NCBI GenBank assembly: GCA_051294905.1
Contig: CM119372.1
Location: forward strand, 6,636,001 to 6,696,000
DNA: 60,000 nucleotides
Source of the DNA: Botryllus schlosseri
Taxonomy: Eukaryota
Reading direction: 5' to 3'
Part shown: in pieces, positions 1-59,737 of the stretch
Position numbering within the stretch: position 1 is the stretch's first letter
How the letters are laid out: every line of letters begins with the position of its first letter
Position numbers and translations under genes: made by a program
Notes under the pieces: model-generated
The model's input: the letters and a program-made list of their open reading frames with translations, nothing else
Database searches by the model: none
What the model was told of the DNA's origin: nothing

Positions 1-415
1 AAAAGCGATGAGGCATATCGGAATCGCAACGCAGCAAGAGGGAATCAAAATGGTAGGAATGCATCTTGCCGTTATGTATAAACCGGAAATGCTTTCAAAT
101 AACTTGGTTCCTTTGCAGCATTTCTATCAAACACAAATCAGGATCGGCTATATCGATTGAGGAGGTATTCCGAGGGTACCGCAACGAGTCTGGACTCAAT
201 CAACAGAGACAGCGTTGCAGCCGATCGTTTAAGACAATCACTTACTGGGTAAGTTTTCGCCAAAGGGAGCATTTTTCAGCTTCTTCCGAATCACCACAGC
301 GAATCAGCTTTCCCCGCAATCATTTGGCAGAAGATGGTCTTCCACACGCAACCCTTCCTATTTACCCGGGCTTGAAACCGGCACTGGTTTTAGTGACCAA
401 CGAATGGATTCTTGA
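1..415 (+). CDS. 5'-partial glucagon/secretin/PACAP-superfamily peptide precursor (gene A); exons <1-52, 119-248, 331-415; ...KSDEAYRNRNAARGNQNAFLSNTNQDRLYRLRR|YSEGTATSLDSINRDSVAADRLRQSLT|GRWSSTRNPSYLPGLETGTGFSDQRMDS*
   Basis: Splice sites AATG|GTAGGA (52/53), CTTTGCAG|CA (118/119), GG|GTAAGT (248/249) and TTTGGCAG|A (330/331) give consistent phases (1, then 2). A furin-type RLRR site precedes a 27-aa peptide (166-246) beginning YSEGTxTS and followed by G-R (amidation/monobasic site). The last acceptor is the least certain. Confidence 0.8.
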
Positions 416-993: not shown

Positions 994-3900
994 AGCTTTA
1001 GTTTTAGGTAGTATTTAATAAATGACTACTACCTATATCAAAATGTTCAATGCATTCTAAATGGGGTTGGGGTGCTAGGTGATATGTTCGAGGTGTGAAA
1101 TCCAACTAACATGAGATTTTCCTGAACCGAAACAAATGGCCATGATAAACCTACTATTCTACTCCCGCTAAATGTGATTCAAATGTACCGATGGGCGATG
1201 GTATCGCTACTAATACAGCATTTCAAATTGAATTACCTTTTTTACAGACCAGCCACAGGCGGCTTGATCGATAAGCAATGTCTCATGGAATATCTTCCTA
1301 CAATTGTCTCCGACTACACGTTTAATTATGCAATTTCGATATGTACACTTTGAGTAATCACATTCCCGAATATCAGCATTCATACACTGCCGCCTATATA
1401 CTGTGTCGTTTATAATTTATTTATCTGCATACTTCAAATATATTTGTCTACGTGATCAACAAGACTGATCAATGTTCAATGCTCATCGTAGATAAGGCCG
1501 TTTCCTTCGTGATCAAAATCACGAAATTTTATATCGCGGGCAATCCGGTATACAATGGTTTAGAAATGGGCACACGTATGGTTTGATATAGGCAATCACC
1601 AGAAAACGTTCCTATGATATCAGTTTGAGTATCTTGCCACGACGCCAGGCGACAGAGGGCAAAACACGGAATGCGATTAGAAAGTGTCGAAATATAGTGC
1701 CCGAGACATCACAAGATATATTGACGTACCTACAAACAAATTCCTCGCTGTTCAATGTCACAACTTTTACCAAAATATAAATACAAGAGAACAGTGAACA
1801 TGAATACACATGGCACATATGTACGAATGATACATTTGAACCCGTATCCACCATGCAGGATGCAGCACTACTATGGCGCACAAAAGCATCCATGAATTTT
1901 ACTTTGACTAGAGTCTATTGTTTGAGATTTGTCATCATAATAATACTGATTTGGATGCTATATTTTACCTAATATTTCAATACTGATAATTCTAACTGGC
2001 GTATATGTATCGCATATGCTATCATATACATATACATCTCCGAATGAAAGGCATTCTGTTGAGTTCGTGATGGTTCATCCATTCATCAGACGCTCGTTCC
2101 GAAAATGGTTAGGGAAAACTCGCAAGACTTGTAACTTAATAGCCCGCGTTTCTCAGCCGACGGGATCAACATGATAAAAAAATAGTCTACCCATTTCATT
2201 TCTCGATTTGAAGGAAGTTGTATTGTAATTTGATGTGAGAAGGTTTTTGTCAGTCACAAACTTACGCACAAGAACACAGCATTTTCAAGAAGCTTACCAC
2301 ATTAAAATTTGACTTGGATGAGTAACCTGCGCAAGTTCACAATGGACATACAAACGATGTTTCTTAGTATATATAAGGCTCACAAGCAACGATAAAATAT
2401 GATGTATGCAGCGATTTCACCAAGATGACGTTGGCTTATTTGTCAGTAAGTGCGAATGTTGCGACATTTCACTCCGAATTCACTTTATACCGCCCGGCCT
2501 GGACCATAGGCCTACACTAGAAAAAGTGAAACATTGTCACCATACGTCAGCATCGCACACCACAGAACAAAAAGTTAAAACACGGACACAAAAGGTTGTT
2601 AAAATCGCATCGAAATAAAAATGACGGCTGAATTTTGTGAAGTGGCGGGGAAGAGATTTTTCACAGTCATTGTCGTAGTTTTCGCTACGAAACATATGCG
2701 ATGAATACAACACTTCGTTATTACTTATATACCATGAAGAATTCAAAGGAAATAAAACCCCCATTGATCCTCACTGCCTTTTCGTTGGTAATTAATGTAA
2801 AAGCAATATCACGTGACACGTAGCCCCTCATAAAGAGTTGATGATGGAAATATACGTACGCCTATTGGAGGATTAGGAATCGTTCATATCACTGTGATCA
2901 ATTGTCAATTCGATTACTATGACCGCATGTAGATTTATCAGCAAAGGAGTTTAAAATCAATATACTGAAAATTGAAGCAGATGTTTGCAATTGTCCACAG
3001 ATTATAAGTATAAATCGTTAATGCAACACAACGATTTACTGTAGCAACCCTGCTCTTTCTGGGTGTAATGTCAAGCTAATTCGATTTGTAAACTACCGGG
3101 AGAAATCATGAACCACCAAAACTTTGAACGACGCCAGCATGGCTCCCTGCATGGACGTTGGACAAATATTACGCCATAGTGGCGAAAGGTTATTACACAA
3201 TTTCGGTAAACACAACCCCGTATGGCAAGCCCCTTGAAGAAAACTGGCGTGTACTCGGCCGGACCTATAGTCGATCCTGTGTTCCTGGCATATGATGCAA
3301 TCCTAATTTCGAATTACATTGGAAATGATGAGTCTATAGAGTGTCTGTATATTGAAAACAGTTTAACATCGTGTCACATCTTCGTCGGCTTTATCTGCAC
3401 GTGTTAAAGAGGAGTTGGTTACGCTAATTCGACCCACGCGATGGAAACACCATGAAATTCACGCAAGGTCATTCTAATTATAGTATATGAAATAAAACAT
3501 TCATTGTAAAATTTACGATCTCCACCAGCACCAGAGCTAGAACAACGGAATTCAGTTAAAAATATTTTCTCGAAGAGAAATATATATACAATTCGTTGCT
3601 AACAAATGACAACAAAACGGCTCTAAAAACACGCCCTCTGGAATCAACGCGTGGACGTGTTACTATATAGATTCTCGATGTAAGGTGAAATGGCGTTAAA
3701 GAGGCGGTAACATGTATAGATATTATTTGGCAGCAACATGTTGTTACTTGTGCTTTTCCATGTCACTGAAAGGGGCGAAAAGTTTTCAAATATACATATT
3801 GCTATGCAATTACGTATTTATTATTTACCGAAGAAATGATATTAGACGTGATTAGAATATTAGAGTATAAACTGTATATTCTTGATCCATTTTATTTATT

Positions 3901-25915: not shown

Positions 25916-28158
25916 ATGAGAGGTGTTGCGGTGATAGGTCTTTTCGCTCTTGTTGCAGTAATCGTGCTTCAGATCGATGGTTCGCCAATATCAAGGTAAG
26001 GTGTCTTTTACATCTTTTGAGTTTGCGTTTGTGATCTGTTAGTACCTATATAGTAATGGCGTATCCTTATTGTAAATTCGCCTCTTACACGATTGCCACT
26101 ATTAGGGTAATACAGTCATCGTTGTTCCATTCTGAAAATCTGCAGTCAACTAGTGTCACGTCTTGTCGGAACTCATGATATCGGATCAATTGTTATAGAC
26201 GCGTCGCTGACACGAATCATCACACATCTCACTTCAATTTGAAACAAATATTGTCATTAAACGGGAGAGTGTATTAATGCACTTTATTTTGTTTTGAAAA
26301 GATAAGTATATCCGTACTGATGACAAGGTATTAAATAGAATTGATAAAAGACTGATCAAGGTCGGGGCGACGTGTACCTCATTACAGTACGACCCGACAT
26401 GGCTTGGTATAAATATACTAAACTGGTACACAACGCCAATAGCATCATCTGTTATAAGGGCGTGAATGTTTACAAGCGGGCGTTCTTTGAATATAATAAA
26501 AGGGCTTGAGGGGTTAGAATCGAAACGGGCCGTAGTAAAGTACCGATGACCTGAAATCGAGAATAGAGCCATTGTAACAAGACCTCCTAGGTCGCGGTTG
26601 TCGTCTCTGAATGTAAACGTGTGTGGTGTTTTATTACAGAGGGCGTGGTAATGCGACAAGCAACCACCGACGTGTCAGTTACAGAAGGGCGAGGGCCAAC
26701 CTTGTTCGGCTGCTGGAATTAAAACGGAAACCACACGTCACGAGGAATTTGCGCAGGGGTGCTCTGGAGAGAAGCAGACGCACTTCCACTCCCGGTATTA
26801 TGAGTCATTTAGTGGGGGAAGTGAGAGGTCGGAAAGCTGCGAAACAGACATTAGCGAGGTGAGGATACAAGAATAAGCTGGGGATGGGATGGCGCGAACC
26901 TGAAAGGTTCTGGTTCGCTTAAACACGAACTGTGCGAAGTGTGACCTATGAAAAAGAGGTTAATTCTAATCAAATCTACATACAATTGCTATATGTTTGA
27001 TTATTTAGCTTGACACAGATCTTAAATTTCTGCCCCCTTAATTTAGAACTCTCTTTAAAGTTTGGTGCGATATTAGTACCAGGAAAGCATTTATTTCCAA
27101 TCCCCTGTCCGTATCAAATACTGTCGAATTAGTAGTCATTAATAAGACATCAGTGTATACTAGTTGCAATTCATGAGATGTCAATCATAACGACGTGACT
27201 TAAACGTTGGTAAAATTCTTTTGGATCCAAGATCTCTTTACGCCCTTAAGGGACCCACTTTTTCACCCAATATTGTAGGGATGCTCGGGAAATTCTCGGA
27301 TACCAGGAACAATTTTGCAATACGTACCAAACATACGTTCCTTGTCACATCAGACATAGATAACTCTGTGACCACACGGGAATATAGGCCAATTATATAG
27401 CAGCGATGGAAGCGAATAATTTTATTATCAACAACTAAAACAGAGTGATATGTCATTCAAACTCCTCAAAAATCAGTATATTTTATGACATCACAAGGTT
27501 CCTCTTAGTTTTCTGTTGAATTTTCTTTCATGCTTCCATTGTGATGCAACCAATGATTAAAGTTGAAATGTAAGGAATCTTGATCACAGATGATAAGATT
27601 ATTGGGAAAAATTAGTATTTCAGAACAATGCTCACAGTGTAGTTTGTAGTGTAGAACCTACTAAAGCTCAATTGCGAAAGTCTGAATCATCGGGGTTCGC
27701 ATATCGCACCCTGATGTTGACACTACCGCAGTTATTATCAGTTTTGTCTTGCTTTAACAATAACAATAATGCGATTTGCCGTAGAAAGCCAACGGGTTAT
27801 ATCGCTACATAATCACCTCATAATATCATATGCATCCAAAAACTACAAAGTGTAAGCAATTAGATGTAGCTTTTTATAGATATCATCAAATAAAATCAAC
27901 CCAAGTTGTCTGACAGTGTGATTGCCCCAATCTAAGTAGAACATCCGTCACATTAGAGGCTCCACTCAACTGATTATAAGATAGCCTACTCTCGTTATAT
28001 TTCCTTAATCACAATAACATTATATATTTAGACTCCGACAGAGCCGCAAACAAGGGAATTTAGGGTCTCTTGCTGAGCACTGCACCCGAATGACTGACGG
28101 AGAAGCAATGATACGATGTTTGACTGAGATGGTGCAGTCGCGGAGTTCGAGCCCATGA
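25916..28158 (+). CDS. Secreted peptide-hormone precursor (gene B), 141 aa; exons 25916-25995, 26640-26858, 28032-28158; MRGVAVIGLFALVAVIVLQIDGSPISRGRGNATSNHRRVSYRRARANLVRLLELKRKPHVTRNLRRGALERSRR|TSTPGIMSHLVGEVRGRKAAKQTLARLRQS|RKQGNLGSLAEHCTRMTDGEAMIRCLTEMVQSRSSSP*
   Basis: Classical signal peptide. Strong splice sites AG|GTAAGG, TTTTATTACAG|A, AG|GTGAGG and ATTTAG|A, all phase 2. RSRR furin site. Same coding-exon layout as gene C. AATAAA at 28463-28468. Confidence 0.78.
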
Positions 28159-39659: not shown

Positions 39660-41713
39660 CAATGTAAAAAATCTGGTAGATTAACTTGGAAATCTCTGTA
39701 AATTTTACAACGAATTACCAGTCGCAGCCAATAACTGTGCGTGGCTTGTAATTATACATTTTGATATGTAGTATTACCTTAGTTTAGCTGTGAAGTCAAG
39801 TTACCAGAATTTCGTCGCAAAATTACTGACAGTTACTCGTAACTGCAGTTTACCAGGCCATTGAAAAGATTGATTAGCTTAATAATCGCTGCAGCCAATA
39901 TATACGTGGAACTGAATGTTACTGAGATATCATTCTTGTGGTGATTTGACCTGATTCAACCTCGTTCGTGAAGCTGGGGTGTGTCGCACGGAAATTGTTG
40001 GCCCTAATAGTACCAATTCCAGTATAGTACATAGTAGGGTTCAAGAAACAACTGACAATCGTAGCAAATGTGGTTACACCATAGCAATTATATTATATTA
40101 TAAAGCTATATGGCTATACGGCCGTTCTCGCTGGTTACATTCGTTGTTACGGATAGGGCTGATAAGTTAGGAAATCAGTTTAGGTTGTTAATTATTGTTC
40201 GGGGAAATATAGACATGGCGGACAAGGCGACCTGTAACACCCGTTAGTCCGTTACTGGTTTTCTGAGATTCGTAGTAAACAACCAACGCGCAACTGTGAC
40301 ATCACAAGCATCGTCTCGTTAAGTAAGTACAGTAAGTAGTGAACAACACTTGGGATAAATATCAATTTATACGAAATTAGATGGAAAAGAAAGGGACTAT
40401 ATGTAATGGTGAATGTTTCGGTATGAAAAAGAAATGACCTAAGTCAAACATTATAACGTGGTCAGTAAATATTATTTGTGGCATGTCAGCGGATGAATAC
40501 CACTACTTTCGAAATCGTTCGAGTGTCGTATCGTGATCGTCGTCTGGCCATTATTGAGTTGAGAAAGGGTGGAGCGAAGTTTGTTGTGCTTGAAGAAAGT
40601 GGACACGATCGTGGAAGATTCCTAGGAACGCTAAATGGGATACGCATCGTACAAGATACAGTAGGCTACTGCATAGTATTTGTTACCGTGAATATCTGCG
40701 ACTGTGCAGTGTGCACACCACTTTGATTTCATGACTGAAATATTTCATTCGCCGCATTCTCTGTTCTATTTTGGGATATTAGTCGACTTATATAGTGACC
40801 TGTGACACCACATACTCCGCCGCGGAGGAGTTGAAACTGTTGGCTTGATTATGTCATTTTAGGGCCATAGCATAGAGATGTTTTCATCCACTGCTGGATT
40901 TGTTTGGCACACATGCCGCCTCAATGAGGAACCTTTTGCTTCAGTACATTAGATAAAGTTAGTACCTAATGAATCTCTGCTATATCATGTACAAGGCGGA
41001 GCCTTCATCACACAACGTACCAGTACCGGTACTTCAAAACATGTTGTATTTTTGTTAGCCCATTTGTCTCAAGTCTTTATAATGTCATGGCTAGGTTAGG
41101 AACTTTGCTTTATATAGCGACTTACTCATGAATTCTTTTTAGTGGAACTGCAAGATACTAGTTACACAAGGAATGAGGACGAAAAAAAGAAACAATTGGA
41201 AGTTTGGCCGGTGGTGGAATTAATTCACCTTTTCGTGAGACCACTCGTGTTACTGCATGTCTCATAAAGAAGAATTAGACCTCCAGTAGCAATACTTTCC
41301 CATCGATAACCACTTCATCGTGATATCATGAATGAATATACAGTTTGTTCCAATGTCGTTTTGGGAATGTGAAGAAATTTTTTTGATATTTTAGCATCGG
41401 GTTGCTTTGCGATAGGTATGGATGTACGTGAATTTACAAGCTGGTATGTAATCCTGATTTACAGGGACAGCATGTAGGTAGGTAGGCGGTAAAATGACAG
41501 TATCGGTCGCAAATGTACAGGAGAATATGTAGATTGGATATACCGGAGGTAACTGTAACATTACAATCTGGCGTGTAAAGTGAGATTACTGGACGAGTGT
41601 AAGTTAAATTTACATCGACTAACGGTAATGTCACATTACCACGAAATGTCTGGCACTGGCTACCGTGCTTCCAAACATTTCGCGGTAAATCGAGGTTTTT
41701 ATTTTTTACAGTG
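39660..41713. mobile_element. ~2-kb non-autonomous CACTG-ended (EnSpm/CACTA-like) element, copy 1
   Basis: Ends CAATGTAAAAAAT/ATTTTTTACAGTG; collinear over its whole length with 51905-53947; no transposase ORF. Confidence 0.85.
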
Positions 41714-42311
41714 ATGGGGGAGAATTCAGACTCACACTTATCACTTCTCATGGCGGCAAGAAAACCATGTTCTATTGTTCATCGAGTAGTTCAGAGGTCG
41801 GCACCCTTTCGAATGCCGCGTGCCAAATATTAGAAAACACGAACAACTCCCGTATCGAAGATTTACTTATGTATTTCGAATTTATTCACATCTAAAACCA
41901 TATCATGTAGCATATATATTCTCGAGAGGGTCTTGAATAATTTACGGCTATACCTACGATAGTCTTCAGTTATATATCTAAAGTGTTTATTGTCATTGTT
42001 TGCATCGCAGTCTCTTTTACCCCCCACACCCACACACACCCTACATCCGGTAAGTGGCTCACTTACACAGTTCGGAACCTAGTGTACAGGTCATGTGAAA
42101 TTTGATGGAGGATGGTGGAGGAGTGGAGACTGAAAAATATCGAGTGTAACTTCGGCAATTTCCACAGAAATTTTAGGGTGTTGACCACACGTTTATATTT
42201 TGTCATGTTTATTGTTGTTGGGGTATGACAAAATGTCCGTTTTCTTCCTTACACGGCACTTTGGTAGGGAGAAAATCACGGCCACGAGAGAAGATATAAG
42301 AGGTTCGGCAC

Positions 42312-42475
42312 TATATATAATGCTCCAAATTATTCGTCGGTCAATTAGATATACTTTGCCAACTAGTGTAAGCAACGGCCAGAAATCGAACTCCGATTTC
42401 TTGTAGTAACATAATCACAAAAGCAAAACATTAAAAGAGTTTCATCAGGAAACCAAGAAGAAAAGTTTACGAAAG
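42312..42475 (+). promoter_or_regulatory. Candidate TATA box and non-coding first exon of gene C
   Basis: TATATATAA at 42312-42320; donor GAAAG|GTATGA at 42475/42476; acceptor TTTTTTTACCAG|A at 42749/42750, upstream of the ATG. Confidence 0.55.
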
Positions 42476-42775
42476 GTATGACAGAAAAGTTTTACTTGTA
42501 ATTAATATCTGGCATTTTGGGATGACTCAAGAATTTTTTCTTCTTTCAACAACTCTCTAGTCTAGTGTATATAAGGAGTAACTATTGTATCATAAATGCA
42601 GTTCGGGAATCGCAGTGCCTGTTTCCAACAGCACTAAAATGTATGGATTTCGTATTTACCGAATGACCCCAGTCACACTATAGTTGTAGCGGTACATGCT
42701 TTAGTACATTTATGCAATTATCGATAGCAAGTGCTCATTTTTTTACCAGATACATAAGAAATCATATTAAAAAGA

Positions 42776-43321
42776 ATGAAAACCTACATCACACTAATCG
42801 CAACCATTATTCTTGTCTGCGCATTGGACTCGTGTCTATCGAATCCATCCAGAAGGTAAGTGAACCATCGAGTGATTTTATAAAAGTGCATATCAAATAT
42901 TTTTATATTTTTTGAGCAGAATAGAAAGGAATGAAAATCGCATTCCAGCTGGTGCTGACTCGGAACGGGATCCAAGTCTCCGACGATCGCGCCGTCACGC
43001 AGATGGAATGTTCAGCCACGTTCGCGGGAACGCGCAAGAGACCAAATCAGTACATAGATTCCATCAAGTTATGAGCCCAAGGTATAGAATCATCGAATAT
43101 ATTCTTCTCCCTTCTGGGAGCAGATTTAAATTGGTACATGCTATCCTAATCTGCAACCGCTATTTTCTATATACAGGAAGCGAAAAAGCATTGCTACGTA
43201 CCCGCCAGTTTTACGAGACTGTATTGCGAAGAAATGCAAAAAGAGCAAGAGACACATAACGAACCGCAAAATAAAATTGTGGGCGTCCAAATGTCTCAAA
43301 TACCTTATCCGCCATTCATGA
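42776..43321 (+). CDS. Glucagon/PACAP/GHRH-superfamily peptide precursor (gene C), 128 aa; exons 42776-42855, 42920-43081, 43177-43321; MKTYITLIATIILVCALDSCLSNPSRRIERNENRIPAGADSERDPSLRRSRR|HADGMFSHVRGNAQETKSVHRFHQVMSP|RKRKSIATYPPVLRDCIAKKCKKSKRHITNRKIKLWASKCLKYLIRHS*
   Basis: Signal peptide; phase-2 introns (AG|GTAAGT...GAGCAG|A and AG|GTATAG...TATACAG|G). RRSRR precedes HADGMF, the hallmark H-x-D-G-x-F N-terminus. Splicing creates an RKRK site directly after the 28-aa peptide (42996-43079). Confidence 0.85.
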
Positions 43322-44874
43322 TGGCATCTTGGGAACGAAGTTACGTATCTACACTGAGATCAAAGCAATACGACGTCTCTACTGTGAAATTCAACCTACA
43401 TAATATGCAAACGAAGATATCACTACAGCGTGCATATTTGACAATGACACTAACAGCAGGAATCGGACAGAAATGTCCGTAAATCCGTCAATTCTCTGCA
43501 TTGCCGCCCGTCAGCGAGGATGTATAATATGAAATGCACCGTCGAAGTGCCGCAGGCTGAAATCGTTCAGATTACGAATATCAAAGATCAGTTCGGAAAT
43601 CATTCAAATACGAGAATACCCATCGAGTTCGGAACCTCGTCAGAAGAACAGAAGACATCATGGAAGTTTAGAATATCCATCGGAATGATAATTTCTCGGA
43701 CACAAAATGAGATCCATGCATATTATTGATCAGTGGAAAATTATCATACTATAACTAACTTGTGGTATGGGTATTTCGCCTTTCAATGCGTGTAACATTG
43801 TTGCACAAGATATTTAAACTAACATACTTTTGACCGCGAACACTACGTAAAACGCCGCACATTTGCTGTCCTTTTTTATAAATAAAAATATTATTACATT
43901 ATTCATGGATTACATCATCCGCGAGTTGAAAGCTCAGTATGTTGCAATTGGCTACAGAGGGCCACGTTCGGGAAAACGACTCACTTGTTCGGTATTCACA
44001 ACAATAATAACGTTACACTCCACTATCAAGTACCCTAGGCAGTTCTATTCTTTTCCTATTACTCTCATAAATTCCTTTCCTTAAATAGTAACATATCCAC
44101 TCGTAATAATTCCAGTTTGGGAATCGCATTTACTGATAAGCGACCACAACACGATGTGGGAAAGTGTCGCCCACAAACTATTCAAGTTCAAATACTAGCA
44201 GATAGCCTACGTGACCTTATTGATCGAAAATTGCCGATGAGATGGCCTAGGAACGCGATAAGGCGAAAGAGGTTAACGAATTTCAGCCTCAAATCAATCG
44301 CGTCGTCGGGGTCATTTCAAATATAAATATTTCACCGCAATATGAGCAATTGAGCATGTTTATAATAAAATGAGAGAAATCCCGGGATTCCCCATAGATC
44401 AGTATAATTCGAATGCCATCGGTTTATTTATCGCTATTGTTGCAAAATATCAACAGCATAAAGTATCTTCAGAACTTATAAATATATAAATTAGTGTCCA
44501 CTGAGTCCTATTGACGAATTATGTCGCGTATGAAACTCGTCTCGGTATCTATAAGTTCGATTTGATGAGTAGATCATAATAGTGTCCTGCAAAGTCAAGC
44601 TGTGCTGTCAGTACGATCTGCCGACCAAGTTATTGGTGCAGATGATGACACAGACTGATGGAAATTGCCACGTTACGAAATTAAAACAATGATATAGTTG
44701 GGTTTATTGAGAAATAATTTAAAACAAATAAATTGCATCTAGATGCCAGGCATTAGAATGTGAACGCATCAAAAGAATGCGGAAACTATTTCATCGCAGC
44801 AGACAAAACTTTCATTTCAGTGTGGTTGTCACAGTGACCGTATTCATTTACCGGTACTCATTAATCAGCTCTCT

Positions 44875-45020
44875 TCATCATCATTTCGTCATTTCATTCA
44901 AATCTTTACGAAATCAATAAACCACACGATTGCGATATAATGAAAAGATAGGAGGGTGCCGAAATGACTTGGAGTAGATTTTTAATCAGATATCCACCTT
45001 GGCCTACAGCCTGTAAATAA
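44875..45020 (-). repeat. 3'-end fragment of the CR1/L2-like LINE (also at ~51083-51220)
   Basis: CCACA...TGCGAT...ATGAAA...GGA.G.TG.CGAAA.GACTTGGA...AATCAGA.A.CCACC is shared with 5710-5795. Confidence 0.6.
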
Positions 45021-51904: not shown

Positions 51905-53947
51905 CACTGTAAAAAATCTGGTAGATTTACTGGGAAATCTCTGTAAATTTTACCACGAATTACCGGTCGCAGCCAATTACTGTGCGGAGCTTGTCATTTT
52001 ACATTTTGATATGTAATATTACCTTAATATAGCTGTAAAGTAAGTTACCAGAATTTCTTCGCAAAATTACTGACAGTTACTCGTTACTGCAGTTTACCGA
52101 GCTATTGGCAAAATTGATTAGCCTCAAAATCGCTGCAGCCAATGTATACGTAGAACTGAATGTTACTGATATATCATTCTAGAGGTGATTTGACCTGATT
52201 GAACCTCGTTTGCGAGACTGGGGTCTGTCATACCGAAATTGTTGGCCCTAGTATCAATTTAAGCTTAGTATGGTACAAGAAATAACTGACAATCGTAGCT
52301 AATGTGGTACACCGTAGCCAGATTATATTATAAGGCAATGGCTGTACGGCCAGTCTCGCTGGTTACATTCGTTGTCACGGATAAGGCTGATAAGTTAGAA
52401 AATTAGTTCAGGATGTATAATATTGCTCGGGGAAACTAGAAATATCAGCACCGCATGCTCAGCTGACCATTTGTTAATGGCGGACAAGGCGACCTAGGTT
52501 ACATTAGGTGACTGCTTTTTCTGAGATTCGTAGTAAACAACCAACGCACAACTGTGACATCACAAGTAGCGTCTAGTTAGGTAAGTACAGTAAGTAGTGA
52601 ACAACACATGGAATATATATCAATTTATACGAAATTAGATGAAAAAAGGGACTATATGCAATGATAAATGTTTCTGTATGGAAAAAACGACCCAGATCAA
52701 ACATTATAACGTGGCCAGTAAATATTATTGGTGTCATGTGTCAGCGGATGAATACCATTTATTTCGAAATCGTTCGAGTGTCGTCTGGCCAGTGGCCATT
52801 AGTGAGATTTGAGCAAAGGGTGGAGCGAAGCTTGTTGTGCTTGAAGAAAGTGGACACGATCGTTGAAAATTCCTAGGAATGCTGAATGGAATACGCATCT
52901 TAAAAGGTAATAGAGTACTACATAGTATTTGTTACCGTGAATATCTGACTCTGCACACCAGCCCTCGATGACTTAGATTTCATGATTGATATATTTCATT
53001 CGCCGCATTCTCTGTTCTATTTTGGGATATTTGTCGACTTATATAGTGACCACATACTCCGCTGCGGAGGAGTTGAAACTGTTGGCTTGGTAATGTCATT
53101 TTCGGGCCATAGCATAGATATGTTTTCATCCACTGCTGGATTTGTTTGCCACACATGCCACCTTAAATTAGGAACCTTTTGCTTCAATACAGAGATAAAG
53201 TCATGAATCTCTGCTATGTCATGTAAAAGGCGGAGCCGTTATCACACAATGTGCCAGTACCGGTACTTCAAAACATGTTATATTTTTGTTAGCCTATTTG
53301 TCTTAGTCTTTATAATGTCATGTCCACTGTCCAGGTTAGGAACTTTGCTTTATATAGACTTACGCATGAATTCTTTTTAGTGGAACTGCAAGATACTACT
53401 TATACAGAAGGAATGAGAACGAGAAAAAGAAACAATTGGAAGTTTGGCCGGTGGTGGAAATAATTCACGTTTTCTTGAGACCACTCGTGTTACTGCATGT
53501 CTCCTAAAGAAGAATTAGACCTCCAGCAGGAATATTTTTCCATCGATAACCACTTCATCGTGATATCATGAATGAATATACAGTTTGTTCCAATGTCGTT
53601 TTGGAGATGCGAAGAAAATGTTGCGATATTTTTGCATCGGGTTGCTTTGCGATAGGTATGGATGTACGTGAATTTACAAGCTAGTATGTAATCCTGATTT
53701 ACAGGGACAGCATGTAGGTAGGTAGGCGGTAAAATGACAGTCTCGCTCGCAAATGTACAGGAGAACATGTAGATTAGGTATACCGGAGGTGACTGTAACA
53801 TTACAGTCTGGCGTGTAAAGTGAGATTACCGGACGAGTGTAAGTTAAATTTACATTGACTAACGGTAATGTTAGATTACCACGAAATGTCTGGCTACCGT
53901 GCTTCCAAACATTTCGCGGTAAATCGAGGTTTTTATTTTTTACAGTG
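51905..53947. mobile_element. ~2-kb CACTG-ended (EnSpm/CACTA-like) element, copy 2
   Basis: TIRs CACTGTAAAAAAT/TATTTTTACAGTG flanked by TA on both sides (2-bp TSD); direct-orientation homolog of 39660-41713. Confidence 0.88.
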
Positions 53948-56073
53948 TACATATCGCGTATATCAAGGGTTCTTAAACGGGGGTCCGTGGACAGTGGACA
54001 CCTTGTGGTACGAGGAACCAAATCACTAGATGCATCGTTGAATTATAGACGCAAAAGCCCACAAAAAGTGGAATATTTTCCAGCCAGACGCATTCAGCTC
54101 GTAACTTTTATTCGCGCTAGGCGCGATTTCATATCAATGGTCTTTTTGATTTTAATATAGGTACCGTCACACGCTGTGTTAAAAACGACCAAGGGTACGA
54201 GAAATGTTTTTGAAAGTTGAGCGCGAAAAAAGGCTACGAAGCACTGGCGTATACGTCGAGCGCGCTTAGCAATCTCGCAACGATTCCTAGCAACAATTGC
54301 GGAGCCATTCGTGTTTATCGCAGTTTATCGTGTTCATTGGATAGCGAGCTACTAACAGCGTGCTGTTTTGTCATCCTTGTCTACCATACCAGAGCAACAT
54401 TACAGATAAAGCAGTCGTAGCGACTAGATGTCGTAAACTACAGGGAATGTCGAAAATGGTAGGTGATTTCCCATTCAGTTTAGGATCAAGTAATCTACCG
54501 CTGCACAGTACGCATCATACAAAGGACGTAGAGAAAACAAATCGCGGTTCCTCATCCCACGAATAATCGAGTCCAACGAGCCGCAACATAAAATGTCTCC
54601 TAAATTAACCATCATATTTCATCACTATGATTGAGATTCTACTCAGTACTTTAGAAATACACATGTGAAAGGAAGAGAACATTATTTGTCGATAAAGTAG
54701 TAATGAGTATTGGCAATGAGGATGGCAACTGGCGTCAACGAAGTAACACTCAATGTGATGTCATAGAAGTAGTAACGGCGAAAACCAAGTAGTCCGTCAT
54801 CGTACGTAGAGTGTGTCGATGAATTTCGAGCAAAAAGGAAGCGAGGAAAAATACAGAACGATTTGCAAGGCTGCGCGGTGCCCACTCCTAATCGCAGAGA
54901 GCGATGACGACCATCACACAGACAGCAGTATCAAAAAGGCAATAAAGTATAAAAACATACACTAAAAGTAGCACCAGTTTTAGAAAGCCAACACGGCGCT
55001 TCCAGACATATGAAGTATCAAGGCATAAAACAGTAGCTAATAGCAATTGCGTGAAAAGTCAACATAACAGATAGAAAAGTAATGTACAAAAAGGCAAATG
55101 GTGTATGGCATATAAGACATACGGACCGCAAGAAGTAACACTCTCAAGAGTCCGCACTTGCTAGTAGACATCTCGATTTTGACGACTGGTCGTCCGATTC
55201 CTTATCAGACTTGACAATATACCCAGCCGTTTCTCTGGGAGCGTAGTATGGAAGCTCTTCCGGAGGAGCTATCTGTAAGTCCAGGAATAATGTTGCATTT
55301 ACTATCATGAGAGTACGGTTATATGTGAACGACCATGGCTTAGTAAGAGTAGCGTCAAAAATGAAAACCCAGGACAACGCCTAACGCCGCACTAAGAATA
55401 AGGGCCTGCCCGTAATATTTTACGACTGATCATGATCATTCGCGATAGATGGGAATAAATGACAATGTCCCCACGAAACTGGACATTTCAAACTTTTCGG
55501 TGCCACCTTTCCCGCACTGAATACGAGACAAAATCGCTTCAGCACGATGGTGCTACAGATGCATCGCGACGAAACGAAAAGAATGATTTCACAATCACCA
55601 GATCGATAATTCGAGGGGCTAGAGCACATTTCGTGTGCACTAGCTTGTGGTTTTGGCGGCAGGCAATCAGGCATAATGTAACAGGGTTATGTCATAAAAA
55701 CTTATCGTACTTTGATTCCTCAATGTATCGCCGAGGTTGTATTGCTGATTCCATGAACATGAGATTCTGATAACATAATAATTATCCAGGTCTTTATACA
55801 ATAACTGGTACACAGCGCCTAGTGTGGTGTTTTTACATCTAGTAGTACCGTATTGGTATATACTGGTAACTCATTCCAGAGAAATTCATCAATTCACGCT
55901 GTACTTCACGGTTTCTGGTTACCAAATGGTGATTCACAGAAAATCAAGTCTGGGGACTCGAAAACGCCAGACGCCACAATCCCAGCCTAAAACCGGTTGG
56001 TACTTGGTAGTATATTCTAGGGGAATACTAATGGCCAGGCTCACAAAACGACGTAGCCACAAATTTGAAGTGT

Positions 56074-59000
56074 TCAATTGCCTTCCAGGATAAAGGGTAG
56101 GTAGAATTTCTACACAGAACAGAAATCCGACAAGATTGAAGCGGGTAGAAAAGCCAGCTCACATGACTTCGCGCTTTGTTAAGAGTCTTTTTAACTCTCA
56201 GCATGGTAAGCCTCGCAGAAGCCCTTTGACACCACATTTCCCTCATCAATTTAACCAGTGTAATCATCGCCTGTTAAAACAAATCGATTTCTAATTTAGG
56301 AAATTGATTGATTGCGTCCATAAAGTGATATAGATCAGTGGTTCTCAACCGCCAGGTATATTACAATTTCATACCTTTATTTCAAGATGCAATGTTGAAG
56401 GCAACAAGTACAGAACAGATAAGAGCTGGCTCATCGCTAAACAGCGCAGTTTGCGCGATAAATCGATTTCGATTCTTTCATTTTGTGCAGGACCGTAACT
56501 GGGGCACCCCAAACCGCCCAATTCGAGAGGGGGCGAGCTTGAAAAGGTCCAAAAATTATTTTGCAAATGAACATAACTCAGAGCGATTTTTTTTTGAAAC
56601 TTTTCCCAACATGTTTCAATTTCTTATTGCGCGATTTAGTGTCACCAAATGCCTTATTGCTTGTAGGTGCCCTTCTCCGAGAGAGGCATGTCGGCGTCAG
56701 TCATTAACGCGCCACGACGTACCATCACATAATAAAGTTTAGGCTAACATGGGACTCCGAAAGTTGTGCCAAAAATTCGGAAGCGAGAAAACTGATTCAG
56801 TCATGAATGATCGAAAATTTTCGCCATTGGCGCGATTAAGCTACATAAACTCTGTGCTTACACTGAGTGGAAGGAATATGCTCACAAGTAGAGGTGGAAA
56901 CAACCACCCGACCGGAGGGTCTGGGGGCGAAGCCCCCGGAAGTTTGGCTTATCGCCCTGTAGGGCCAAATACCAACGTTTTTGGGTTTGGGCCGACGAAG
57001 AAATTCTTCAGCTCGGATTTGCGCATGGCCGGTATAGCTGCTGTAAGGTGTTTTTCTTGCGGCAAGCATTGTTTTCGTAGTTGCCAGAGTAGCCTGCGTC
57101 TGGTGACGGTGGGCAATGAGCAAGGTAGCACGACAAGGGTCTTGGTTCTACTCCGAAACGGCCTTCGGCGCGAAAGACTGTACACGACTCTCGACCGTAG
57201 CACGTTTATCTAGACAAGGAAATTTTACCTCTACTCAGCAGACTCACTAGACACTAGGTACCATAAAATTACATGGATGCCACCATGAAGATAATTAATT
57301 ACGATCAAAACCCTCTAAATGTCACTTTCTAGCACCATATAATTGCAATTTGGCATCATTTCAATTTTGAAAGTTCACCGGTCCACCTGACATTTTTTGA
57401 AATTTTACCGGTCCGCGAGGTGAAAAAGGTTGAGAACCACTGATATAGATCATAAGATTGTTCCAAACAAATTTTCAAGTTGATAAGTATTGCCCGGTAA
57501 GTTACCTGCCACTGCCTGCATTTCACATTTTCCTTCATCGATATTGTACTATAAACTGTGCTGCCGATAAATTCATCAACACTCGCTTGATGACACACAC
57601 ACTTGCAAGCTCAATTACAAAGCAGATTGCCTTTATCCGCACCAACCTAGGTCATTGATCCGGATAGACACAATAAAAGCTAGATAACCATGCTGACGAC
57701 GTGGTGTAAATGTGATCATTTGGAATTGTGGAAAATACAGCAGTAGACATTTCAATTGGTTGTTACATAAAAGTGGACTGGCAATAACAACACATATTCT
57801 TATTTGACCGCAACACCTGTCATCTAAAAGTACTCCCACATTCTAGGAAACCAACATTTTCAACAGCTGCAGAGAACAGATAGCAACAGGCACATGTCTA
57901 TTCAAAATACCATCGCATTTCATCGTGAACATCATGGATTTCTGACCTGCTTGATATAAGAGTAAATGAGCGGCTGGACTCTCTGAACATCTATTATTAT
58001 AACAGGTGAAGTCCGGCCTGACAGAAAACTGCCTTGAATTAAATTTGATTCAGTCTGCACTTCAGAAAACCACATTTCCAATTCTCCTCAATTTTCCTAT
58101 CCAGAGAAATAAAATAAGTGAACTGTGCACAAAAACAACTTACACATAGACACAACCTTTCCTGAATTCGCTATCGTGAATAAGTGCTGCAAAACCGACT
58201 AAATCTACATCATACTGCGACTCAATCTATATCTACTATGTACTCACAAATAGAAACTCTTCCTGATCCCATATCACTAATTCCATATTGAAGAACAGGT
58301 CAAAACCATACCTCATCATATCGCCAACTGACCGGGATGACAGGCCGATATTCATCATCACACACTATTTTTCGCATTTCTTCGAAACTTGGATCATGCC
58401 CAACAACGTCAAAGTAGGGAGGTTGGTATTCTTCTGTGATACCTAAACAGGGTGTGGTCTGTTTAGTATTAATCACGGAGCACACTAGATTGAATAATTC
58501 CACCATTAACAATGCGTCTATCGAAAGTGATATGACAGCCATATGATCATCTTCTGTATTTTCGATAAATGAAAACATTTAGATCACTTTTATGTAGCAG
58601 AATATAATAAAACAGCAGGACACTAATGGTATGATTGTCAACAGGGAATGAAGAAATTCCATATAGGCTACCAAGTGGTATATTATGAAGATAACTATGT
58701 GGAGACATTGAGGGGAGAAGTCTGCTTCTAGCTAAGTGTTTCACAAATCTCATGATACTACTGAAAACACAACATTTTTACAAAGATTGAATAGTATATT
58801 CATATTGAAATAAACCCAAATATTTTCGGCTGACACTCGTCAGGGCTAATCGTCAGCAACTAGTAGAGAATTGCTGGCTACTAGTTGCTGACGATTACCC
58901 CTGACGAGTGTCAGCCGAAAAGATTTGGGTTTATTTCAATATGAATATACTATTCAATTGTATATTGAAGTTCTGTACCTCCAAGAAGCTTTTACAAAGA

Positions 59001-59737
59001 TGAAACATGATTATGGTACTGAAAAGTGGTAGCTTGTAAACTGCAATTTAGCAGTAAAGCATGGTATAGGCAGAACAGTTAATAAAAATACATATGTAAG
59101 TTTTGAGCAAATCCTTGCTAACCTTCAATGGAGCATCTTCGCGCTGCCTCCCAAATCACCAATCCAAATGCGTAGACATCCGCTTGCATGAAGCAGTCGA
59201 AACTGAGTGGATTTATGGTTTCATCAAGAACCTAAATTGACAAATTATAAGATCGTAGACATTGGTTCCATATTACATTGTGATATACCTCAGGTGCCAT
59301 ATACCGCTTCGTTCCCACTCTGTTATTATTTCTCCAAATATCCACAGAGTCTCCATTCTGAAGCACGGCCAAACCTGAAGAATTTAATAGCAGATCAACC
59401 TAAGAAATGCAATCCACCATCACCAAATACCCACCAAGATCTGCAATGCAGCAAGTCAAGTCGTTTTTCACCAATATATTTTTGGACTTTACATCGCGAT
59501 GCGCTATAGCAGGTTTACCCTTGAATAAATAAGGAGAATTTATGGGTTTGACATTCTTGTGTCACAACACAGCGCAATGAGCACACCAACCTTGACCCCG
59601 TCTATCCGGGTATGCAAGTGAGACAGGCCATTGCTAGCAGTCTGGCAAAGTCGTAAGAGTAACTGCTTATCCAACGTATTTCTTTGCAGGAAATCGTACA
59701 TAGAGCCCAGTGGATGGTAATAGCTGATCAACCAAAG
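56074..59737 (-). CDS. ACVR1: TGF-beta/BMP type I receptor Ser/Thr kinase, ACVR1/ALK1-2-like, 3' half; exons 59737-59591, 59519-59435, 59374-59289, 59231-59123, 58442-58312, 56270-56163 and probable final exon 56109-56074
   Basis: Spliced translation: [18 protein letters not shown]...[32 protein letters not shown]...[19 protein letters not shown]...[15 protein letters not shown]...[23 protein letters not shown]...[23 protein letters not shown]. All introns are GT-AG with consistent phases. The subfamily call rests on recalled similarity to ALK2. The final exon is uncertain; without that splice the ORF reads through to 56028. Confidence 0.93.
56336..57442. mobile_element. hAT-type element in a receptor intron
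   Basis: TIRs CAGTGGTTCTCAACC/GGTTGAGAACCACTG; TSD ATATAGAT. Confidence 0.88.
58786..58958. repeat. ~170-bp near-perfect intronic palindrome
   Basis: ATTGAATAGTATATTCATATTGAAATAAACCCAAAT...CAACTAGTAG, an 11-nt loop, then CTACTAGTTG...ATTTGGGTTTATTTCAATATGAATATACTATTCAAT. Confidence 0.9.

Follow-up and report, generated by a model that had tools for sequence, protein, structure and literature searches.

The window analyzed here, a 60,000-nucleotide (nt) stretch of the Botryllus schlosseri genome (GCA_051294905.1, contig CM119372.1, positions 6,636,001 to 6,696,000 of the forward strand; this contig is C2 below), contains a spliced tunicate gene, gene C, which probably encodes a strongly diverged prohormone of the glucagon superfamily. 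Its predicted product, a peptide that starts HADGMFS (peptide C), would be the likely ligand of glucagon-receptor-like G protein-coupled receptors (GPCRs) encoded on another contig of the same genome, C6. Our placement of the gene on the glucagon branch is based on four independent and individually moderate lines of evidence: the residues of the peptide, a tandem sister gene (gene A), linkage to Hox genes, and the receptors. In our view gene C likely shares its origin, a Hox-linked ancestral gene, with vertebrate GCG, GIP and GCRP, and peptide C likely works like a glucagon-family hormone.

Gene C is a real, spliced four-exon tunicate gene. Four of 24 listed public sequencing runs were mapped over positions 40500-45000 of the window; three of these are assembled contigs whose kind of RNA was guessed, and the fourth, X23, is recorded as RNA. 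Its introns, all GT..AG, were spliced in two (42476-42749, 274 nt), four (42856-42919, 64 nt) and three (43082-43176, 95 nt) of the four runs. The joined exons give a 128-residue frame from the ATG at 42776 to the stop at 43319-43321, both coding introns are in phase 2, and the spliced leader has no ATG before exon 2. A reading of the sequence alone (the sequence-only reading) had predicted this layout, namely a non-coding first exon, a signal exon, a single peptide exon and a tail exon, and the spliced runs bear it out, including the joining of the signal exon to the HADGMFS exon in all four runs. The span it gave for the peptide, 42920..43189, begins exactly where exon 3 begins but ends 13 nt inside exon 4, and while it was right that the gene is real, it covered only one of three tandem precursor genes. 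In X23 the second and third introns are crossed by two and six junction reads, respectively, at an exon depth of ~2-10, indicating that expression of gene C is low. All 13 reads of X23 that cover position 43045 have G in place of A (Lys17Arg), a variant absent from the three contig runs and the only exon 3 difference among the rows listed.

The precursor has the form expected of a small prohormone: a 28-residue peptide between basic sites, on its own exon behind a signal exon, for which secretion and cleavage are predicted. The leader is hydrophobic (Kyte-Doolittle 9-residue mean up to 3.2), and a signal peptide is predicted from this hydropathy. The HADGMFS start is encoded at 42996 on the + strand, directly after RRSRR (42981-42995), a furin-type site, and on its 3' side the peptide is followed by an Arg split by intron 3 and then by Lys-Arg-Lys. 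The 46-residue tail has 16 Lys/Arg, three Cys and one acidic residue. A likeness to vertebrate genes in intron phase is tentative: the two coding introns of gene C are in phase 2, as those of vertebrate GCG, GIP, VIP, ADCYAP1 and GHRH may be, and human GCG may have phase-2 introns throughout and a glucagon exon of 162 nt, the length of exon 3 of gene C.

As a yardstick for the peptide we used the 18-position secretin/glucagon prototype printed in Cardoso 2010 (PMC2880984). Peptide C has six identities to it (H1, A2, D3, G4, F6 and F22), and the match is concentrated at two receptor-contact zones, positions 1-7 (P 3-4e-7), with the His1 and Phe6 activation motif present, and positions 19-26, where it is weak (P 0.04). 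The amphipathicity of positions 17-27, a predicted helix, is above that of 97.4% of shuffles (moment in the top 2.6%), and the hydrophobic face expected at 22/23/26 has Phe22 and Met26, with His23 instead of a hydrophobic residue. When the whole genome was searched (495.5 Mb, 219 contigs), the DNA pattern basic-Arg-His-[Ala/Ser]-x-Gly-x-Phe had 13 matches, six of them from one repeat family, versus seven in a reversed control, so the motif alone is not rare and proves little. A precursor context was found for only one of the 13, gene C. Within an assumed 1e5-1e6 in-frame codons of secreted precursors, the expected number of chance matches is 0.0007-0.013, and what makes chance unlikely is the setting of the motif: a furin-type site immediately precedes it, the precursor is spliced and has a leader, and the peptide that it opens is of family length. 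Judged by its residues, the N-terminus of peptide C resembles the secretin/glucagon superfamily beyond chance, though below formal thresholds.

The start of the peptide does not discriminate between branches, since H1, A2, G4 and F6 also belong to the GCG-like consensus. Further along, the positions kept in GCG-like peptides are partly present (Gly4, Phe6 and Phe22) and partly absent (Ser8-Asp9 and Trp25), with Leu26 replaced by Met. The GCG-family hydrophobic face is described as Phe22, Ile/Val23 and Leu26, with Ser/Thr16-Arg17-Arg18 typical of GCG, in Park 2013; of these, peptide C has Phe22 and Thr16, with Met26 in place of Leu26 and Lys17 in place of Arg17, and one run shows an Arg17 allele. 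Taken alone, the peptide would only lean to the glucagon side; it is Phe22 together with the Hox-chromosome position and the receptor repertoire that points to the GCG/GIP/GCRP side.

Gene C has two predicted tandem sister precursors in or overlapping the window, genes A and B. The three share a strand, and in each a phase-2 intron follows the signal exon and another the peptide exon. Gene C aligns to both A (shuffle p 0.006) and B (shuffle p 0.004). Peptide A matches seven of the 18 prototype residues, including T5, T7, S8, S11, A19 and L26, which peptide C lacks, and gene A, as predicted, is the stronger anchor for kinship with the family. Among the 25 sites listed of 2025 post-basic sites in 110 kb, peptide C has the highest prototype score (25), followed by peptide A (22), and the next site scores 18. 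Gene A carries an extra phase-1 intron, and a single-protein search with its exon matched only itself. Gene B has a very basic propeptide and no tail exon was identified for it; peptides B and C have Gly-x-x-Ser-His-x-x-Gly in common.

A predicted receptor of the GCGR subfamily is present in the same genome. Scans for the hormone-binding and 7tm_2 domains gave three similar genes on C6 (at 5.33, 5.39 and 5.65 Mb), three to four clustered on C3 (9.56-9.71 Mb; PTH-receptor-like by eye) and one on C15 (11.62 Mb; CRH-receptor-like by eye); most of the 140 7tm_2 matches are unclassified, and our statements on the repertoire are based on the classified ones. A piece spanning transmembrane segments (TM) 5-7 of one C6 gene scored 72.8 bits with GCGR, 70.6 with GLP1R, 57.0 with GIPR and 57 with GLP2R, with PTH1R (47.9), GHRHR (47.6), VPAC1 (44.5), PAC1 (41.7) and SCTR (42-45) at lower ranks; the other two C6 copies were assigned by their likeness to this one. 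The nearest proteins to the C6 receptor are two unnamed ones (73% and 67% identity), with named ascidian/tunicate 'GLP-1 receptors' at 58-65%. The TM2 Arg is kept in all three C6 receptors. In GLP-1R, Arg2.60 is linked via bridging waters to Glu9, the third residue of GLP-1, as described in PMC10166269, and the retained Arg thus fits Asp3 of peptide C. At an extracellular-domain position where the six other tunicate relatives that have this domain retain Asp, all three C6 receptors carry Thr, which suggests that divergence has affected the docking surface as well as the peptide helix. Ciona has two GCGR-subfamily receptors and no PACAP receptor (PMC7251081).

Eleven of the 51 homeodomain matches in the genome are on C2, the contig of the gene cluster. 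Only two of them were typed by comparison with the PDB: an Scr/Antp-type homeobox 0.65 Mb downstream of the cluster, and one at 4.83 Mb, 1.8 Mb from the cluster, which is closest to Hox-C9 and of posterior type, so that the cluster has Hox homeoboxes on both sides. Further ones resemble, by eye, Hox1, Hox4, Hox12/13, Evx, Dlx and Meox. In vertebrates, GCG, GIP and GCRP lie beside HOXD13, HOXB13 and HOXC13, on linkage groups E0, E2 and E3, according to Park 2013 (PMC3679108). The next recognized gene downstream of gene C is an ALK1/2 receptor kinase, and the nearest recognized neighbor upstream is an intermediate-filament gene 33 kb before the window. ACVR1/ACVRL1 and filament genes are, we assume, also found on the human Hox paralogons of GCG, GIP and GCRP, and we know of no VIP, ADCYAP1, GHRH or PTH gene on those Hox regions. 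PDE1, a further synteny marker, had no match anywhere and is uninformative. We give the Hox linkage modest weight.

Along C2, Hox genes are scattered over 3.8-22.3 Mb, together with boxes resembling Evx, Dlx and Meox. Two central Hox boxes, one at 7.33 Mb (-) and the other at 9.34 Mb (+), are almost identical, which may reflect a duplication or an assembly double. Six stretches at 11.63-11.69 Mb contained no Hox box; the domain scan places one at 11.75 Mb.

A number of results weigh against the glucagon-branch assignment, and against membership of the superfamily at all. In peptide C, positions 8-16 match the prototype below average (P 0.82), positions 8-26 together give P 0.21, and of the conserved middle (Ser8, Asp9, Tyr10, Ser11, Leu14 and Gln16) none of the six residues is present. 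The whole-prototype score of 25 is attained by four of 178,292 background 28-mers, and His23 interrupts the hydrophobic face. Only five of the 15 GCG-like consensus residues and one of seven GCG-specific residues are found. Pfam Hormone_2 (PF00123, cut-off 21.2 bits), which the sequence-only reading had named as a check, gives no match at E 10 with either the peptide or the exon, and in a genome scan with PF00123 the gene C locus was absent and three weak matches lay elsewhere (E 7-9); HMMER filters drop weak matches, and these negatives are to be read with that in mind. A PDB sequence search at E 10 had no match for peptides C or A. Nor was an orthologue found in a word search with exon 3 among proteins of 69-223 residues, in a comparison of the tail with longer proteins (three candidates, none scored), by phmmer over 1.84 billion representatives (none at E 0.001) or among metagenome contigs (599 pattern matches, none confirmed), although searches of this kind miss short divergent peptides and unannotated genes, and their scope did not extend to other tunicate genomes. 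Within the cluster, neither the comparison of A with B (p 0.17) nor that of the A and C tails (p 0.27) yields a significant alignment. In the ranking by the TM2 exon of the C6 receptor, PTH2R and VPAC2 come first, and GCGR takes the last place among those shown. C2 makes up 8.2% of the genome, so the synteny amounts to one chromosome-level coincidence with a prior of 0.082; FAP and DPP4 flank human GCG, yet C2 has none of the 25 DPP4-family matches; and the kelch and SLC10 genes downstream are not known to us as markers of the GCG/GIP/GCRP paralogon.

With the Hormone_2 cut-off and the conserved middle not reached, gene C is not filed as a superfamily member. However, identity to human PACAP is no more than 10-15% in the accepted amphioxus peptides as well, and low identity therefore does not exclude kinship. 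The divergence of the tandem peptides would also explain why searches with vertebrate peptides or with Hormone_2 come back empty.

If gene C does encode a glucagon-superfamily prohormone, its precursor would enter the secretory pathway, where furin/PC-type convertases would cut after RRSRR and at Arg-Lys-Arg-Lys to release a free-acid 28-mer. Binding could follow the two-step mode of class B1 receptors, in which helix 17-27 (Val19, Phe22, Val25 and Met26) would dock on the extracellular domain and His1-Ala2-Asp3-Gly4-x-Phe6 would enter the transmembrane core, with Asp3 meeting the retained Arg2.60. Residues 1-7 in the core would then trigger output through Gs and cyclic AMP, the target being one or more of the C6 receptors. 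The His-Ala start would presumably make peptide C a DPP4-type substrate, and DPP4-family genes are present in the genome (25 matches). A gut or neural endocrine role may be expected by analogy with amphioxus PACAP/GCG and with PC2-positive gut cells of Ciona. More tentatively, and somewhat short of an expectation, the three tandem genes could be the tunicate counterpart of the GCG/GIP/GCRP locus before its duplication, tripled in step with the three receptors.

An alternative in which genes B and C encode peptides of the PTH family that would act on the PTH-receptor-like receptors encoded on C3, with the glucagon-like start of C as a secondary trait, we regard as unlikely. PTH-family peptides have His9 and Gly12, and the Gly-x-x-Ser-His-x-x-Gly shared by B and C recalls this spacing; gene C would need a one-residue shift to fit, whereas no shift is needed for peptide C to match the glucagon/secretin register at 1-7 and 22. 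Three to four receptor genes on C3 look PTHR-like by eye, and no convincing PTH gene was found elsewhere in the genome, a single match to PF01279 (Parathyroid) on C16 (E 0.25) having been rejected as a PTH gene as it contains stops. The PF01279 genome scan did not list the loci of our genes either, and Pfam had no match on the peptides. Sister gene A is glucagon/secretin-like over positions 4-11, 19 and 26, and vertebrate PTH genes are, to our knowledge, not Hox-linked. Urochordate PTH peptides have been reported (PMC5640766, citing Mirabeau and Joly 2013), and these are, as gene C would be, tunicate precursors of class B1 ligands with a likeness to the His..Gly mid-motif of B and C; compared by description only, register and chromosome fit the glucagon side better.

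It is similarly improbable, in our estimation, that gene C encodes a tunicate-specific secreted peptide whose first seven residues arose by chance or convergence, the active product perhaps being the basic, Cys-containing tail (for example, as an antimicrobial). The middle of peptide C is unrelated to the prototype, there is no family, structure or orthologue match, the tail has 16 Lys/Arg to one acidic residue, and the motif recurs across the genome (13 occurrences), one occurrence being an exact 20-nt twin in a neurexin intron. Against this, the spliced precursor has a leader and the motif follows its furin-type site without a gap (expected 0.0007-0.013 times), peptide C is of family length, and another precursor that matches the prototype lies on the same strand at a distance of 43 kb. 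The 20-nt twin of the peptide C start (C6:18,434,725-18,434,744; L062:1507-1526) is one of two genome copies, for which the probability by chance is ~6e-4; it is antisense in the neurexin intron, and before it come codons for Lys-Arg and a splice acceptor that is plausible. We did not count it as a paralogue; it has no further likeness, no hairpin and, by eye, no signal exon. A frame at C6:4,854,194 (L002:1501-1677), 0.5 Mb from the receptor genes, has Gly-Met-Phe after an Arg-rich site; it was rejected as a relative (34% likeness to exon 3 over 58 residues pairwise, genome-wide E 4.09, no matching exon structure). It adjoins dCMP-deaminase-like exons and is probably due to chance.

The sequence-only reading had taken the peptide for one of PRP/PHI/GHRH type, that is, a PACAP-branch hormone that would act on a VPAC/PAC1/GHRHR-type receptor, and this now appears very doubtful. 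Peptide C has His1, Asp3 and Phe6 of the PACAP-like consensus (three of seven residues), Ala2 and Ser18 of the set common to PRP/PHI/GHRH (two of seven), and Gln24, a GHRH signature, and its precursor holds one peptide, like that of GHRH. Scored on the subfamily signature residues of Cardoso 2010 (PMC2880984, section 8), however, it has none of four for PRP, none of four for PHI and one of four for GHRH, with His23 rather than Leu23. It lacks an amidation Gly, and exon 3 splices straight to the tail exon with no PACAP or VIP exon following, whereas the precursor of PRP also contains PACAP and that of PHI also contains VIP. Also unfavorable are the Hox-chromosome position of gene C, the TM5-7 piece of the C6 receptor, which puts GHRHR, VPAC1 and PAC1 25-31 bits under GCGR, and the lack of a PACAP receptor in Ciona as given in PMC7251081. 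As for vertebrate contamination or an assembly artefact, a concern raised by earlier invertebrate PACAP cDNAs that match salmonid sequences and are doubted (PMC7251081), we attach practically no credence to it, as the sequence-only reading also held: gene C lies among tunicate-type genes inside a 40.6-Mb chromosome-scale contig, its introns of 64-274 nt are spliced in runs of one species label, vertebrate proteins give no match, and the genome encodes a cellulose synthase (scoring over the Pfam cut-off) as well as receptors that come closest to ascidian proteins.

Compared with the vertebrate GCG-like family, peptide C has His1, Ala2, Gly4, Phe6 and Phe22 of the consensus (PMC2880984), and lacks ten of its 15 residues, including Ser8-Asp9, Val23 and Trp25; it has Met5. 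Like glucagon it has Thr16-Lys/Arg17, Gln24 and a length of 28. Gene C resembles GCG, GIP and GCRP in its Hox linkage (PMC3679108) and in having a signal exon followed by a propeptide-plus-peptide exon. It differs from GCG in having one peptide per gene, expansion being by gene rather than exon duplication, and from the GCG-like family in its basic, Cys-containing tail and a score under the Hormone_2 cut-off. The likeness to PRP, PHI/PHM and GHRH is in His1, Ala2, Asp3, Phe6, Ser18 and Gln24, but Leu23, the amide donor and the partner PACAP/VIP exon of those peptides are missing, and none of the receptors classified here was identified as a match for them.

Among invertebrates, the amphioxus PACAP/GCG precursor (peptides a, b and c), which we compared by description and not by sequence, is likewise from an invertebrate chordate, has low identity to vertebrate peptides and comes from a four-exon gene; it is expressed in gut endocrine cells and the nerve cord. 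There, three peptides of 32-33 residues come from one alternatively spliced gene, whereas here there are three genes. Tunicate receptors cluster with the GCGR subfamily, whereas bf95, the amphioxus receptor, branches basally to PAC1 and GCGR (PMC7251081). The Chelyosoma productum PACAP1/2 cDNAs (McRory and Sherwood 1997, via PMC7251081) were also a tunicate claim to the superfamily; unlike those cDNAs, which share 85-96% identity with human PACAP and have never been located in a genome, gene C is genomic, spliced and far from the vertebrate peptides.

We found no paper describing an authenticated tunicate ligand of the glucagon family, in a search to which most subscription journals were closed. 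Tunicates have glucagon-receptor-type GPCRs, yet genome and transcriptome searches yielded no ligand and the PACAP cDNAs are doubted (PMC7251081, PMC2880984 and PMC3434177), and a 2024 paper states that no invertebrate orthologue of the vertebrate glucagon gene is known (PMC11661445). If the three tandem genes are indeed the tunicate counterpart of the GCG/GIP/GCRP locus before its duplication, they would be the first authentic glucagon-branch hormones outside vertebrates, the split between the glucagon and PACAP/VIP branches would predate the parting of tunicates and vertebrates, and the orphan glucagon-type receptors of tunicates would be paired with ligands. Genes A, B and C give candidate peptides that can be synthesized, and the three receptors are named, which makes the origin of glucagon/incretin signaling directly testable. 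The supplements of two earlier studies, Mirabeau and Joly 2013 and On et al. 2015, reportedly deal with tunicate PTH-like and amphioxus peptides and could contain relatives, which would lower the novelty.

The coordinates of the three genes and of the neighboring receptor kinase are given in Table 1.

Table 1. Positions of the predicted and observed features, counted from the first nucleotide of the window
Feature	Position	Strand	Basis or remark
Gene A signal exon	215-118 bases before window start (L054:9785-9883)	+	Predicted
Gene A cryptic-peptide exon, 3' part	1..52	+	Predicted from sequence
Gene A peptide exon	119..248	+	RLRR, then YSEGT-starting peptide at 166; phase-2 donor on Gly codon; predicted
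Gene A tail exon	1248..1353	+	Predicted
Gene B signal exon	25916..25995	+	Phase-2 donor; predicted
Gene B peptide exon	26640..26858	+	Phase 2 both sides; RSRR, then 25-residue peptide 26782-26856; predicted
Gene C TATA-like box	42313..42320	+	Sequence scan, upstream of exon 1; predicted
Gene C exon 1, non-coding	42354..42475	+	5' end approximate; contigs of runs X1 and X3 enter the 274-nt GT..AG intron
Gene C exon 2	42750..42855	+	ATG 42776, hydrophobic leader, phase-2 donor
Gene C exon 3 (162 nt)	42920..43081	+	Phase 2 both sides; 25-residue propeptide ending RRSRR, then peptide
Predicted mature 28-residue peptide C	42996..43079	+	Starts HADGMFS; Phe22, Gln24, Met26; no Gly amide donor
Gene C exon 4, coding part	43177..43321	+	Completes split Arg, then Lys-Arg-Lys and basic tail; stop 43319-43321
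Gene C 3' untranslated region	43322..43886	+	AATAAA at 43881; read coverage fades in 43822-43972 bin
ALK1/2 (ACVR1/ACVRL1-type) receptor kinase, 3' exons	56031..59737	-	PDB best matches ACVR1 and ACVRL1, two exons

Other genes downstream are an intronless BTB-kelch gene and a 381-codon frame without a Pfam family (L050:7438-9183 and L052:7926-9068), as well as a gene of the SLC10 bile-acid-symporter family and a mucin with a WxxW domain (L053:193-3181 and L053:8569-9999). Within the window, a highly expressed multi-copy element at 40560-41710 has spliced reads (joints 40653-41141 and 40957-41143) and poly-A-like loose ends near 41377, and a second copy of it lies at ~53.3-54.0 kb (53300-54050).

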